IMG/VR virus record: IMGVR_UViG_3300050162_000068
Span: 1-34,636 of that record
Source: a virus
Lineage: Duplodnaviria; Caudoviricetes
DNA: 34,636 bases
Direction: 5' to 3' (one strand)
In this document: positions 570-30,232 of the stretch, one piece after another
Layout: each line of letters begins with the position of its first letter
How positions within the stretch are numbered: position 1 is the stretch's first letter
Position numbers and translations under genes: made by a program
The notes under the pieces: generated by a model
Database searches by the model: none
What the model saw: the letters and a program-made list of their open reading frames with translations, nothing else
What the model was told of the DNA's origin: nothing

Positions 570-595
570 AAAAGCCCGCTATATAGCGGGCTTTT
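570..595. terminator. Bidirectional intrinsic terminator
   Basis: Perfect 26-bp palindrome AAAAGCCCGCTATATAGCGGGCTTTT with A/T tracts on both sides, between a + gene and a - transcription unit. Confidence 0.9.
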
Positions 596-838
596 GTTTA
601 CGTCATTGGCGGTGCATTGTGTCATTCAAATCGTCGGAAAGTTGCCTGCGCAACTGTGACCGGTCTCGCCGAAGAGTTCCAGAGCCGCTTCTTTTATCGC
701 TTTCAAATGATAAGCGAAACCGGTCGCAGTTGTACAGGCTATCCCGCATGCTTCCCCGAAGGTCGGAGGCGGGAATCGCTCTCCGAAACACGAACTACCT
801 ACAGCAATCTGAAGAATCCGGAACACCTTCCGAGATTC
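570..838 (-). ncRNA. Candidate structured non-coding RNA (~270 nt)
   Basis: Own promoter (873-845) and terminator (570-595); 5' hairpin 838-814; 26-bp stem 644-669/714-739; cUUCGg loop at 761-756; further nested stems; only weak GTG-start ORFs overlap. Confidence 0.6.
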
Positions 839-844
839 AAAAAT

Positions 845-873
845 AGATTAATCGTTTGCGGTGGCCTAGTCAA
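845..873 (-). promoter_or_regulatory. Leftward sigma70 promoter TTGACT-N17-TAATCT
   Basis: -35 at 873-868, -10 at 850-845, 17-nt spacer; predicted start ~838 coincides with the first base of a hairpin. Confidence 0.75.
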
Positions 874-1176: not shown

Positions 1177-3423
1177 ATGTCAGAAGAATTAGACCTTATA
1201 AAGGCACTGGCCCCGATCACAACCCGCGTCCGGACAGACGCAACCGCAGTCAAAGGCCGTGACGCGCAGGGGTGGACCAAACAGCCGCTAACACAGCCGC
1301 GCATGCTGGCGCATCTGGGAAAAGGCCCTGCGCGGGGATGCTGCCCTATTAAAGCAGGTGAGAGTACAACATTGCTGGCCCTGTTCGATCTGGATTCCCA
1401 CGGGGGTGAAACCACATGGGATGCTATGGCGGCGGTTGCGGAGGAACTTTGTCAGGCGCTGGAACTTTTCGGAATGCGGCCGATTGCTTTCCGCTCCAGT
1501 GGCGGACGGGGGATCCACATTTTCATGTTGTGGGATACCCCACAGGACGCCTACAGTGTGCGCTGTGCTTTACAGGACGCGCTGGAATCTATCGGCTATA
1601 CCAACGGCACCGACGGCGTACAGAAAAAGCAGATTGAGATTTTCCCCAAGCAGAATAGTGTTCCTTTATCGGGGTATGGCAACCAGTTTATTTTGCCACT
1701 GTCCGGGCAATCCGTCCCTCTTGATCGGATGTTTGGTTTTGAACCGATGCCGCGGGATGCCGTTGTAGATCTGGGGTGGCCAGTATCGGAACCGGTGGTT
1801 TTCGTCGAGCATACCGAAGCCGAACAAACAATTACGGTACCTGAGCATTCCCGCGAACAAATCAAAGAAGCGCTGATGACTATCCCGAACGGGGAAGGGA
1901 ATACCGAGTCACTATCTTATGATGCCTGGCGCGATCTGATGTTTGCCATCCACTTTACCTTTTCCGGCGATGATGAAGGTCTGGAACTGGCGCACGAATT
2001 CTCGGCAAAGTCCCCGAAGTTCGACCCCGAGTTCCTGGATAACCGCGTGTGGCCATACATCCGCAACGACCGGGAAGGGATGGTGATCACCGACCAGACT
2101 ATTATCAATAAAGCCCGCGAATTTGGCTATCACGGTGACGTTCTGGAGGCTTTTGAAACGCTGCCCGCAGTCCAGCCGGAAGAGGAGCCCCACGATCGGC
2201 CGCGGTACGTCCGCAATAAAGCGGGCAAGATCCTGACAACCCTACCCAACGTTGTGTTGGCCCTCAGTGATCCAATGGAATGCGGCGTGACTGTAGCGTA
2301 CGACGAATTCCGCGCCGTAACCAGTATCAGCACGGATTTGGGCAACAGCTGGCGCGTGCTGACGGATGAAGACGTCGTGCAGCTGCGGATCACACTGGAG
2401 AAAATAGGTTTCAAAGAATGTCCGGGGCGTGAGATGGCACGCGACGCGCTGATGCTGGTTGCCGCTCACAAGAAGTTCGATAGCGCCTGCGTCTGGTTAT
2501 CCCGTTTGCGCTGGGATGGCGTCCCTCGCGTATCCGGATTCCTGCCACACTACTGGCACACCAAAAATACCGAGTACACAAGGGCGGTCGGGCGATATAT
2601 CTGGTCCGCGCTGGCGGGTCGTGTCATGAAACCCGGTTGTAAAGCGGACATGGCCCCTATCGCCGTAGGCCCCCAGGGTGCGCAGAAGTCGAGCGGGGTC
2701 GCGGCGATGGCGCCCAATCCTGAATTTTTTCGTGAAATAAATCTGACTGAGAAAGAAACAGATCTGGCTCGCAAAATGCGCGGCGCACTGGTCGGAGAGC
2801 TGGGGGAAATGCGCGGCTTCCGGGCTAAGGAAGTGGAGGCTATCAAATCATGGATGGCCCGCAGTACCGAGCGCTGGACTCCGAAGTACAAGGAGTTCGA
2901 TACCGAATACCCGCGCCGTGTCTTTTTTATGGGGACGTCCAACCCTCGCGATGTCCTGACCGATACCACCGGTAACCGCCGCTGGCTTCCTTTCGATACT
3001 CAAAAAGTGGATTCCGCAGCAATCGCCCGTGATTGCGAGCAACTGTGGGCCGAAGGCCTGGAGATTTACAAAGCAGAAGGGATCGCATATCGCGAAGCCG
3101 AAAAGCTGGCAGCGGCGGAGCACGACGATTTCATGGAGCATGACAGCTGGGAACCGGTCGTTGAACGCTGGCTGCAGGAGGAAGATCTACTCACGGGCGA
3201 AGTACCTGCTGATCTTCTGGCGGCTGGTGGTTTCATTCCGACGCTGGATATTCTGGCTGCAGCTTTACAGGTGCCGGCCGAACGCATCAACCGTGCTATC
3301 GAACAGCGGGTTACATCGGTCATGTCTGCGCTGGGATACTCGCAAACCCGCCGCAGGAAAAACGGGATCAGGATGAAAGGCTGGGAAGTTGCGGGGATCG
3401 CTCCCCAGGAAAAAGGAGAATAG
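1177..3423 (+). CDS. DNA primase-helicase: AEP primase + PriCT-2-like + VirE (VapE) ATPase
   Basis: AEP motifs FDLDSH, SSGGRGIH, EIFPKQ, GNQFILPL; YDAWRDLMFAIH (PriCT-2-like); Walker A GPQGAQKSS, ELGEM, GTSN, DTTGNRRWLP (VirE). Confidence 0.9.
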   Translation: MSEELDLIKALAPITTRVRTDATAVKGRDAQGWTKQPLTQPRMLAHLGKGPARGCCPIKAGESTTLLALFDLDSHGGETTWDAMAAVAEELCQALELFGMRPIAFRSSGGRGIHIFMLWDTPQDAYSVRCALQDALESIGYTNGTDGVQKKQIEIFPKQNSVPLSGYGNQFILPLSGQSVPLDRMFGFEPMPRDAVVDLGWPVSEPVVFVEHTEAEQTITVPEHSREQIKEALMTIPNGEGNTESLSYDAWRDLMFAIHFTFSGDDEGLELAHEFSAKSPKFDPEFLDNRVWPYIRNDREGMVITDQTIINKAREFGYHGDVLEAFETLPAVQPEEEPHDRPRYVRNKAGKILTTLPNVVLALSDPMECGVTVAYDEFRAVTSISTDLGNSWRVLTDEDVVQLRITLEKIGFKECPGREMARDALMLVAAHKKFDSACVWLSRLRWDGVPRVSGFLPHYWHTKNTEYTRAVGRYIWSALAGRVMKPGCKADMAPIAVGPQGAQKSSGVAAMAPNPEFFREINLTEKETDLARKMRGALVGELGEMRGFRAKEVEAIKSWMARSTERWTPKYKEFDTEYPRRVFFMGTSNPRDVLTDTTGNRRWLPFDTQKVDSAAIARDCEQLWAEGLEIYKAEGIAYREAEKLAAAEHDDFMEHDSWEPVVERWLQEEDLLTGEVPADLLAAGGFIPTLDILAAALQVPAERINRAIEQRVTSVMSALGYSQTRRRKNGIRMKGWEVAGIAPQEKGE

Positions 3424-3915
3424 ATGATGAAGAGATATGTAGCAAAAAGAATGAGTAGGCTTGCGGAATGGATACCCACTACTCAGGACATAGAATCGCA
3501 ACCGGAGAAGATTCTACTGCATTGGCTGAAAATGAGGCACGCCATACTAGGCATGGCTTTAAAGATAGATGAACTCTGCGAAAGAATAGAAAAGATAAAG
3601 CCTAAAAAGCCAGTCGGGATTCCGCCGCAGGAAAATTCAGTGAAGCAGCATCAGCAACCTGAATACCTTTTATCCCCGGATTTTATAAAGGGCATGTATA
3701 AAACGATTAAGGAAGATGACGAAAAATCAGGGATCTTTTACGATTTTATAGTAGAGCATCGGGTAATCGAGTACCTGGTTAGGGATAAAATAGTGACCGA
3801 CATCACAAAACAGAAACTTAGAAGAATCATGGAAAATGCCGGATTTAACCGCCAGCGCAGGAGGGTCGAAGGGATAAGAACCATGGTTTGGTGTCGAGGA
3901 TGCTCTAGAAAGTAG
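3424..3915 (+). CDS. Hypothetical protein with C-terminal domain paralogous to the primase-helicase C-terminus
   Basis: RBS AAGGAG; AT-rich; IMENAGFNRQRRRVEGIRTMVW aligns without gaps to VMSALGYSQTRRRKNGIRMKGW of the upstream gene. Confidence 0.7.
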   Translation: MMKRYVAKRMSRLAEWIPTTQDIESQPEKILLHWLKMRHAILGMALKIDELCERIEKIKPKKPVGIPPQENSVKQHQQPEYLLSPDFIKGMYKTIKEDDEKSGIFYDFIVEHRVIEYLVRDKIVTDITKQKLRRIMENAGFNRQRRRVEGIRTMVWCRGCSRK

Positions 3916-3937
3916 CTGTCCATTTGGGATTTCTTTT

Positions 3938-3968
3938 AAGCGCCGAGATTTTTCGTCTCGGCGTTTTT
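3938..3968 (+). terminator. Intrinsic terminator after the primase operon
   Basis: CGCCGAGA-7 nt-TCTCGGCG followed by TTTTT. Confidence 0.75.
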
Positions 3969-4070
3969 GTATCCGCAAAATACTACATGTAACTTGCACT
4001 TGCAATTTTTTACACGTTTAACGTGTAAACTTTTACAAATTCGCGGCGGGCGCGTGGCAATACAAGACCG

Positions 4071-4293
4071 GCTGTCCCCGCAGCGGGACAGCGTGGACAG
4101 CTGCGGGACAGCTTAAAAGCCCAAAAAACTCTTATAAATCCTATGTTTACTTACTATGTCCCTACTGTCCTTATGATTTATATATAAATAAGGTATCGGA
4201 GAAAAATAGGGTAAAAAACGAATAAAAGGCCAACCGTAAAAACGTCAGGTAAGTTCTGGGAAAATACGTGGACAGCGTGGACAGCGTGGACAA
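4071..4293. repeat. Putative replication origin: GGACAG/CTGTCC repeats around an AT-rich palindrome
   Basis: GCTGTCC 4071; GGACAGC x3 in 4085-4112; TGTCC 4157; CTGTCC 4165; palindrome ATTTATATATAAAT 4176-4189; (CGTGGACAG)x3 4267-4293 with the last copy ending in A; non-coding and directly downstream of the primase operon. Confidence 0.7.
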
Positions 4294-4461
4294 TCGTTTT
4301 TGCGCTATTTTGTTTTTCTTCCTCGTTTCTTTGCTTACTTGTAAAATTTTGCGTGTTTCCTGCCGTGAGTTAGGAGGCTTTTTCCCTATCGTATTTTGGT
4401 TGCTTTGTAGACGACGTTAGATAATAATGCTTGCAATTTAATTTTGTTTGGAGTAAGCGCG

Positions 4462-6901: not shown

Positions 6902-7339
6902 ATGCGAATAATCGAAGAAAACGTGGTTGAGTTTATCCAGGCGAACGGCGATATGCTGAAAGCGAACTGGGAAGAAACCGGCTTTGGTTGGGATTTCGAT
7001 ATCGATTTCGACTTCTACGGACGGTTACAGGAAGCGGGTTTGCTTTGGGGACTTGCGGCTTACGACGGTGATACTCCGGTGGGCTACTGCACGTTTATGG
7101 TTTTCCCTCATGCCTGGCAGAAAGGGCTTCGGGTCGGCAATCACGATGCGATGTACATCAAACCGGAATACCGATGCGGAACCCTGTGCTGGAAGTTGAT
7201 CCGCATGGCCGAGAAGATAGCCCACGAGCACGGGGCGTCCTATTTCATGTGGCATACGCGGGCGGCTACTCCGTTCGCGGATATGCTGTACCGCCGCGGG
7301 TATCATCGCGCAGAAGAAGTCGTATACAAGAGGATTTAG
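6902..7339 (+). CDS. GNAT-fold acetyltransferase
   Basis: RBS AGGA before ATG 6902; AYDGDTPVGYC...DAMYIKPEYRCGTLCWKLIRMAEKIAHEHGA...LYRRGY. Confidence 0.8.
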   Translation: MRIIEENVVEFIQANGDMLKANWEETGFGWDFDIDFDFYGRLQEAGLLWGLAAYDGDTPVGYCTFMVFPHAWQKGLRVGNHDAMYIKPEYRCGTLCWKLIRMAEKIAHEHGASYFMWHTRAATPFADMLYRRGYHRAEEVVYKRI

Positions 7340-7342
7340 GAT

Positions 7343-7651
7343 ATGGGCATTGAAACGATTGCGGCGGTAACAGCAGCAGTGGCGGGGGTGGCGGGTACGG
7401 TAAGCGCCGTTAAATCCGCTAACGATCAGGCATCCGCTACGAAACAATCGCAGAAGCTGGCTGAGGCTACGGCAGAGCAGCAAACCAAGGCGTACAACAA
7501 GGCCAATGCGAACAGCCCTGATATCGCAGCGGAGCAGGCCGCAAACCAGCAGGCCGCGCTTTCGGGCACTAATAGTACGTTCCTTACAGGCTCGGGCGGG
7601 ATCGACACTTCCAGCCTGAATCTCGGCAAGTCTACGCTACTGGGTGGCTAA
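7343..7651 (+). CDS. Small Ala/Gln-rich virion protein preceding the portal
   Basis: Hydrophobic N-terminus, C-terminal STFLTG...LGKSTLLGG; position typical of podovirus pre-portal proteins. Confidence 0.7.
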   Translation: MGIETIAAVTAAVAGVAGTVSAVKSANDQASATKQSQKLAEATAEQQTKAYNKANANSPDIAAEQAANQQAALSGTNSTFLTGSGGIDTSSLNLGKSTLLGG

Positions 7652-29459: not shown

Positions 29460-29855
29460 ATGTCTCTGACTTTAGCGCAAGCCATTGCCGCCGTAGAAAC
29501 AGCGGCTCAGGTTGCTACTGCATTGAAAACCGTAACCGAACTGACCTATGATGCCGCGGTATCTATCTATTCTTACGCCAAGGATATGATCGTAACCGCT
29601 GAACAAGTGTACGGTACCGAAACAGCCGCGGGCAGTTCTAAGCTCTCCGCTGTACTCGCCGCTGTTGGATCATTCGCAACTAGTCTGGGTGCCGATTGGT
29701 CAAAACTGGAAGCGCTGATTACGTCGTTCGTAAATGGCTGCATCAGCTTTTATAATCAATTGATTGCAGGTGTTAAATCAGTCAAAACCGCGGTTACCGA
29801 AACGACTGCCAGTAGTGACGTTACAGCAGATACAACCGCTGCCGTTACTGCCTGA
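29460..29855 (+). CDS. Ala-rich amphipathic protein, weakly LL-H-holin-like
   Basis: RBS AGGGGA; IVTAEQVYG...GSSKLSAVLAAV resembles the AEQ...G..K pattern of that family. Confidence 0.5.
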   Translation: MSLTLAQAIAAVETAAQVATALKTVTELTYDAAVSIYSYAKDMIVTAEQVYGTETAAGSSKLSAVLAAVGSFATSLGADWSKLEALITSFVNGCISFYNQLIAGVKSVKTAVTETTASSDVTADTTAAVTA

Positions 29856-29894
29856 TCGCGCCTTACTTCTTTCTGATACGGAGGAGATCCCACT

Positions 29895-30047
29895 ATGCCA
29901 AGCAAATCCAAGAAGCAGCACCGGCTTATGCAAGCTGTGGCCCACAATAAAAAGTTTGCTAAAAAAGTGGGTATCCCACAAAGCGTAGGAAAAGACTTTT
30001 CAGCAGCGGATGCCGCTGAAAAGTTATACCCCGCGAGAAAATCTTAG
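29895..30047 (+). CDS. Small basic protein, 50 aa (MPSKSKKQHRLMQAVAHNKKFAKKVGIPQSVGKDFSAADAAEKLYPARKS); absent from the ORF track
   Basis: Strong RBS GGAGGAG, ATG 29895, TAG 30045-30047; fills the gap at the end of the late operon. Confidence 0.85.
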   Translation: MPSKSKKQHRLMQAVAHNKKFAKKVGIPQSVGKDFSAADAAEKLYPARKS

Positions 30048-30232
30048 GGCAATTTGTACCGATCACGACAAGGCGCGCAAGCGCCTTTTACCAATCTTTT
30101 AGACCACTCCCCACAGAACTTGCAATACCCCGCAATGCCTTTTTGTATCTTGTTGCTGGTTATGCTTCTTATCTGCATTTCCGTTGATTCCACAATATGG
30201 TCGTTTACCAAATCCACTTCATCACTCATCAT
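30044..30232 (-). CDS. TraR/DksA-like C4 zinc-finger protein
   Basis: MSDEVDLVN N-terminus; CKFC...CAPC. Confidence 0.7.
   Translation of the reverse strand: MMSDEVDLVNDHIVESTEMQIRSITSNKIQKGIAGYCKFCGEWSKRLVKGACAPCRDRYKLP

Follow-up and report, generated by a model that had tools for sequence, protein, structure and literature searches.

What occupies the position divergent from a small Cro-like gene when no repressor gene is seen there, and what might such an occupant do for the neighboring replication genes? The locus that raises this question, positions 570 to 873, lies in a phage record that was analyzed in full: the window is the entire IMG/VR record IMGVR_UViG_3300050162_000068, a linear sequence of 34,636 nt with an estimated completeness of ~79%, which a second assembly exceeds by at least 3.1 kb. 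Its gene content is that of a BPP-1/APSE/epsilon15-like podovirus, with primase-helicase, terminase, portal, capsid, tail, and lysis genes on the + strand and DNA polymerase and helicase genes on the − strand. Outside the 90% cluster to which its primase belongs, the nearest primase shares 53% identity, the nearest relative of its DUF1353 protein is 46% identical, and its capsid protein is at most 70% identical among named phages. As judged from these protein comparisons, the phage is without close relatives, and the proteins encoded around the locus have no relatives at intermediate distance. The sequencing runs that contain the folded region are mostly leaf-litter metagenomes.

The locus is bounded on the left by a DUF1353 gene (150 to 554, + strand), which converges on a terminator-like hairpin at 570–595, and on the right by a divergent open reading frame of 61 amino acids (957 to 1142, + strand), followed by the gene for an AEP/PriCT-2/VapE primase-helicase (1177 to 3423, + strand), assigned by profile matches. 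The truncated 3′ end of a further gene, with no Pfam or PHROG match, fills positions 1–153 of the window, and a contig from run X21 extends 237 nt leftward beyond the window start. The end of the DUF1353 gene contains an exact 17-nt direct repeat (476–492 and 525–541), near the first copy of which the protein sequence of cluster member P0130 differs.

The 61-residue product has ESM Atlas neighbors at 0.92–0.94 that include HTH clusters, three weak HTH relatives, and an HTH_26 match at an E value of 0.08, and is weakly assigned as HTH/Cro-like. A possible + strand promoter for its gene, TTGCTT-N18-TATACT, was noted by eye at 895–924 and overlaps an imperfect palindrome at 907–917; the motif GCAAAATA, which is related to this palindrome, is found at 877–884 (− strand) and at 3975, and these sites are candidate operators for the HTH protein. 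The first-pass annotation had stated that the unit divergent from a cro-like gene usually encodes CI, which is borne out in BPP-1, where cI is divergent from a cro-like gene and heads an early operon ending in the integrase gene, and in the IMG/VR proviruses L168 and L169, where a repressor occupies the divergent slot (30 chosen open reading frames from 12 loci were tested). In the window, the slot instead holds a folded unit and a terminator common to the convergent DUF1353 gene, and the early operon is not next to it. No match to Phage_integrase was found in the 34.6-kb contig, nor specifically at the early-operon end that carries the integrase gene in BPP-1, and no match to Peptidase_S24, the profile of S24-type repressors, was found in the same contig; because the record is incomplete and the other assembly is longer, a repressor could sit in the missing part. 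The junction of the early and late operons lies at 29855–30232, with no integrase between them, and the last early gene encodes a DksA-like zinc finger.

The region folds far better than shuffled controls on both strands: for positions 565–840 the z-score is −6.2 on the − strand and −6.7 on the + strand, with none of 200 shuffles as good. For the core (615–795), from which the terminator and the 5′ hairpin have been removed, the z-score is −6.4 on the − strand versus −5.2 on the + strand, and the ensemble diversity is 17 versus 39. Among 144 background tiles on the + strand, the lowest z-score is −5.2, for a tile (7201–7380, 15 shuffles) at the end of a GNAT acetyltransferase gene. When the 1.5 kb preceding the primase gene was examined in 28 distant relatives, 6 of the 28 had a local fold with a z-score of −5.5 or lower, and the value of −5.7 for the corresponding region of the window was bettered in two. 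The z-score alone is thus strong but unexceptional, and the case for the structure is carried by covariation.

On the − strand, the predicted fold comprises a 5′ hairpin, a three-way junction core, a weakly structured 3′ tail, and the terminator. The 5′ hairpin (838–814) has 10 bp and a 1-nt bulge and forms with a pair probability of 0.93. In the core (786–634), a closing helix (786–779/641–634, 0.94) joins a side hairpin (774–742), whose UCCCGC/GCGGGA helix (774–769/747–742) has a probability of 0.92, to a long imperfect stem of 26 bp (739–714/669–644) with a probability of 1.0, composed of 22 Watson–Crick pairs, two G-U pairs, and two mismatches and carrying a variable tip (713–670). The tail (633–596) contains a candidate seed, CGCCAAUG, at 611–604, across which the probability of being unpaired is 0.45–0.88. 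The terminator (570–595, 0.94) is a bidirectional hairpin of the intrinsic type with 11 bp and T runs on both sides; it shows a weak Rfam likeness to leader terminators and is absent from the list of the program's consensus scan. The model proposed in the first-pass annotation thus agrees in its 5′ hairpin, its long stem, down to the count of pairs, its terminator, its 786–779 helix, and its UCCCGC helix. Its other elements fared less well: the closing pairs of the cUUCGg loop within the UCCCGC stem have a probability of 0.02, a further outer helix, GUGUU/GACAC, is weak (0.12), and the two small hairpins placed at the tip of the long stem reach just 0.31 and 0.37. Taken whole, that model has an energy of −98.8 kcal/mol versus −112.9 kcal/mol for the minimum free energy fold. 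Alternative helices 833–825/642–634 and 813–805/633–625 were discarded at probabilities of 0.06 and 0.0, and pseudoknots between the tail and the tip or between the 5′ end and the tip, for which candidates are present, were rejected as broken in the variants (by eye).

The predicted σ70-type promoter, TTGACT-N17-TAATCT, was identified by sequence match at 873–845 on the − strand. Its description as near-consensus was too generous, as it matches the consensus at eight of 12 positions, with three of six in the −10 element, and the consensus scan does not list it; the sequence itself is present as described, and the pattern TTGACN-N16..18-TANNNT occurs this once on the two strands of the 34.6-kb window. 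The start predicted from this promoter, 838, is the first base of the 5′ hairpin. The long stem does not inform on the strand because it would contain two G-U pairs on either one. The G-U pairs of the outer helices fit the − strand, as had been claimed, and a change at 782 in the variant from run X21 agrees, since it stays paired (as G-U) on the − strand only. The + strand is the better fit for one tip hairpin in the variants of runs X18 and X21, through U-G pairs seen by eye. Together, the G-U pairs of the outer helices, the change at 782, the unique promoter, and the lower ensemble diversity make the − strand the favored one from sequence. A contig of the X21 RNA library spans 531 to ~857, beyond both predicted ends, and its depth of 2.7 is similar to that of the primase pieces in the same library; such contigs carry neither strand nor level. 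In RNA runs X22, X23, and X24, coverage was of neighboring genes only. Transcription would proceed leftward from the promoter at 873–845, and we infer ends at 838 and ~566. That the unit is a − strand non-coding RNA is considered likely.

The covariation rests on two diverged copies of the unit, from runs X21 and X18, each represented by one low-depth contig; DNA runs X16 and X20 yielded no further variant. The X21 copy was compared across 531–818, where it has 16 differing letters (15 among those listed) and three gaps, and the X18 copy covers 690–877 plus a loose end. In X21, the nearest variant available, seven listed changes fall in the 26-bp stem and amount to two compensatory pairs (662/721 and 667/716), two repaired pairs (at 657 and 665), and one break (at 720); the chance of two double-sided compensatory pairs is ~0.04. 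The 667/716 swap is also present in X18, which has changes at 720 and 721 without visible partners. At the tip, both sides of the pair 675/687 are changed in X21 and are now Watson–Crick, and two other tip pairs are broken. All ten pairs of the 5′ hairpin persist in X21, where the loop is different and the bulge has moved to the opposite arm, as seen by eye in a loose end of the contig. The changes are unevenly distributed: the tip region (657–721) has 13 substitutions and two indels in 65 nt, and 596–656 has none. The base and tail together have at most three changes in 158 nt, compared with the ~16–18 that the rate at third positions in the primase pieces would predict, and are thus more conserved than this neutral estimate allows in both the basal helices and the 3′ tail. 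The estimate presumes that the X21 contigs share one strain; recombination could also yield a similar patchwork or clustering.

These changes are not codon-like. In the four open reading frames that overlap the unit, 2, 4, 1, and 0 of the 15 X21 changes are synonymous, compared with 13 of 14 among the listed changes in the first open reading frame and the primase gene, which served as a partial control (Fisher p 0.0005). None of the four frames has a PHROG match. If the unit were a small protein-coding gene that merely happens to be structured, the best case would be the open reading frame at 626–826, where eight of the 15 changes lie at third positions; only four of the 15 are synonymous there, however, and X21 lacks the GTG start codon of this frame (by eye), so that this explanation is largely refuted. 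The description of the unit as multi-branched and non-coding is upheld by the stem covariation in X21 and X18, and on these sequence comparisons the unit is a non-coding multi-branched structure under selection.

No family in Rfam accounts for this structure. None of the 4227 families of Rfam 15 matches at its gathering score; the best weak match scores 28 bits where 90 would be required, and the 19 weak matches are terminator or hairpin look-alikes, so the earlier statement that the family was not recognized stands. The C4 model RF01695 matches nothing in the record itself at E ≤ 10 and is absent from the 19 weak matches; as a positive control, it recovered a genuine C4 RNA in the relative L184. 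The 6S model RF00013 has no match at an E value of 10, with control matches in seven of 14 genomes, and no tRNA or tmRNA was called by ARAGORN for the unit. A reverse transcriptase, as in retrons, DGRs, and DRTs, was sought with RVT_1 and is absent from the 34.6-kb contig, which is incomplete and extends just 569 bp leftward of the unit. A likeness to SRP and REP was considered and dropped, as Rfam gave it no support. Searches for homologues by blastn returned none in phages, none in Escherichia coli genomes, and one chance match in plasmids (E 0.7), and exact patterns found no homologue among the matches listed in IMG/VR, in JGI metagenomes (0 matches), or in GTDB genomes. A weak search model built from the one sequence (R1) was used for all locus screens: its best non-self E value is 0.08 on 87 primase or capsid loci and 0.35 on 60 and 77 pattern loci, and it found no match in 50 whole virus records, no homologue in 14 DUF1353 loci, and no match in 80 of at least 120 IMG/VR pattern loci. 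Open-access word searches returned no paper on the RNA of 570–873 or on RNAs of the BPP-1-like group. The fold probably belongs to a phage RNA not described before, and a single phage lineage is so far known to carry it.

What such an RNA might do is suggested, tentatively, by its tail. The 8-nt complement of the tail seed 611–604 lies in the 34-nt gap ahead of the primase start, where a weak hairpin (1145–1170, + strand, −4.3 kcal/mol) covers the SD-like AAGGTGG (1164–1170) with its 5′ arm (1148–1155). In the mechanism that we favor, with low confidence, the mostly unpaired 3′ tail of a stand-alone leftward RNA of ~270 nt would pair over 8 bp with the anti-SD arm in the leader of the primase-helicase gene. 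This pairing would weaken the hairpin that covers the ribosome-binding site and so adjust the initiation of replication. Activation is slightly favored as the direction; if a second block paired with the SD or the start codon, the effect would be repression instead. The long stem may have a protective or processing role, for example as a site of RNase III cleavage. A precedent for the opening of a blocked ribosome-binding site in trans is IsrK, and P4 CI RNA controls replication genes (PMC4825925).

Among 36 start regions, the primase has the longest tail seed (8 bp; the runner-up has 6). The probability of an 8-bp seed by chance is 0.007 for the primase alone and 0.24 across all 36 start regions, and the target was chosen post hoc, as a CGCCAA motif was noticed in the loci of relatives and then sought in the tail. 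The net cofold of tail and target is −13.5 kcal/mol (p 0.015), and with the whole RNA the primase ranks third of 36. An initial scan for antisense duplexes found nothing above the null and no match longer than 12 nt elsewhere in the window, where exact 8-mer matches to the tail number 23. X21 has the same seed and X23 the same target, hence there is no seed–target covariation, and TTGGCG was found within 90 nt of the start of the primase match in none of 35 loci of relatives. Primase pairing also leaves ~200 nt of structure without explanation.

The main rival explanation is a protein decoy or scaffold, in which the stem and base of a stand-alone RNA would bind a host RNA-binding, nuclease, or defense protein early in infection. 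This explanation is speculative as well, and is nearly as likely as pairing with the primase leader. It would fit a stem whose pairing is maintained while the tip varies freely, a base that is conserved in sequence, the lack of a significant antisense target genome-wide, and the promoter and terminator predicted for the unit itself; against it, no known decoy motif or family is matched, and the GGA motifs of the unit lie mainly within stems (by eye), in contrast to those of Csr/Rsm sponges. A conserved tail that precedes a Rho-independent terminator is the usual anatomy of Hfq-type small RNAs, and the unit could, with rather low probability and by analogy to PreS or VpdS, carry or give rise to a small RNA directed at host mRNAs by pairing, the primase match then being due to chance. 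Phage small RNAs with host targets are known (PMC12197685).

The remaining explanations have a smaller share. The unit lies 340 bp from the primase gene, its long stem is strand-symmetric, and it folds as DNA too (z-scores of −3.8 and −4.5), which would suit a DNA-level structure on which the AEP primase recognizes, or primes from, a single strand; this is improbable, as a promoter and a terminator exactly bracket the unit, − strand RNA folding is stronger, and origin-like iterons lie past the primase gene. About equally improbable, or slightly more so, is a + strand cis element in RNA that reads through from the DUF1353 terminator into the cro–primase operon: the whole region folds equally well on that strand and the variant tip hairpin has U-G pairs there, but the element would begin directly past a terminator, the consensus scan gave no + promoter at that place, and the wobbles of the outer helices point to the − strand. 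An RNA immunity factor substituting for CI, the role that the first-pass annotation had put forward among others, would agree with the location in the cI slot of BPP-1, the lack of an S24-type repressor in the contig, and a primase seed compatible with a P4-like role. The contig, though incomplete, has no integrase, the convergent DUF1353 gene is next, the C4 family test was negative, and the unit would form its own transcript without flanking seqA/seqC-type sites; a role in immunity thus lacks support and is improbable, even though a repressor may be hidden by the incomplete record. A broader version of this idea, in which an undescribed class of large phage RNA replaces CI in one integrase-less BPP-1/APSE-like phage and sets primase-helicase output by a C4-like seed on a 270-nt scaffold, is also doubtful; if true, primase-helicase output would in turn bear on phage copy number or a carrier state.

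Other elements related to replication were observed in the window and in relatives. An origin-like region, inferred from position, lies at 3916–4443, past the primase-helicase gene and an open reading frame at 3424–3915, with GGACAGCG iterons at 4086–4101 and 4270–4294 around an AT-rich core and with inverted repeats; GTAACC-type repeats are found at the equivalent place in L197 and L201. The 570–873 unit as a replication origin was rejected, given these iterons at 4086–4294, downstream of the primase gene. In four distant relatives (L209, 2960–3106; L212, 1531–1676; L204, 3660–3795; L164, 3645–3760; all + strand), a unit not listed in Rfam lies upstream of the primase operon, with CGCCAA followed by a long stem whose tip loop has the complementary TTGGCG and then by a T run; it may be a knotted attenuator or a C4-like switch. 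A model of this leader (R2) weakly links L209 and L212 to L204 (E 0.004) and L192 (E 0.03) and misses L164. The 570–873 unit scores 8.3 bits with R2 with filters off, which does not place it among these leaders, and the tip of its long stem is without TTGGCG, unlike the leader of L209, L212, and L204. A true C4 antisense RNA (64 bits) is present at 1709–1798 (+ strand) of L184, a provirus of the same group, ~1.9 kb upstream of the primase gene.

Regulatory RNAs of phages are few and come chiefly from model phages. The unit offers a clean candidate for testing, with a 270-nt fold, a predicted promoter and terminator, a position at a lysis–lysogeny switch, and covariation support; it is short and self-contained and has a single, sharply testable target. 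If the tail does control the primase, the unit would bring RNA control of replication to a podovirus group in which a protein repressor is the rule. The reach is limited by its occurrence in one phage lineage so far, as judged by weak one-sequence model searches.

Structural comparisons place the unit beside several known systems. As in the BPP-1 cro/cI switch, a small HTH gene heads toward the primase-helicase gene and the unit lies divergent from it; the main differences are that an RNA-like unit and a terminator replace cI and the early operon, and that the integrase is absent at the BPP-1 position. With 6S RNA (RF00013), the unit shares its core length of ~180 nt, a closing stem, and a long terminal stem, whereas its predicted fold is without an open central bubble. 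Like IsrK of Gifsy-1, PreS, and VpdS, it would act in trans via short pairing; it has no sequence or Rfam similarity to these RNAs, its folded domain is far larger, and its action is a prediction. The closest parallels are C4 RNA (RF01695; c4 of P1/P7), which is treated in PMC2864571, and P4 CI RNA. All are three-way-junction phage RNAs with a single-stranded motif of the GCCAA type (Rfam consensus), and short pairing is proposed to control replication genes in each. C4-type RNAs have two short single-stranded recognition blocks; the unit has one candidate block of 8 bp, and a second of 5–6 bp is possible in two registers. C4-type flanking targets are lacking, as no − strand TTGGCG is found within the unit or the promoter region; its single candidate target sits on the divergent transcript. 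The unit thus differs from C4 and P4 CI RNA in being approximately three times longer, in placing the motif in the 3′ tail outside the junction, and in having its own predicted promoter and terminator rather than targets that flank it in one transcript.
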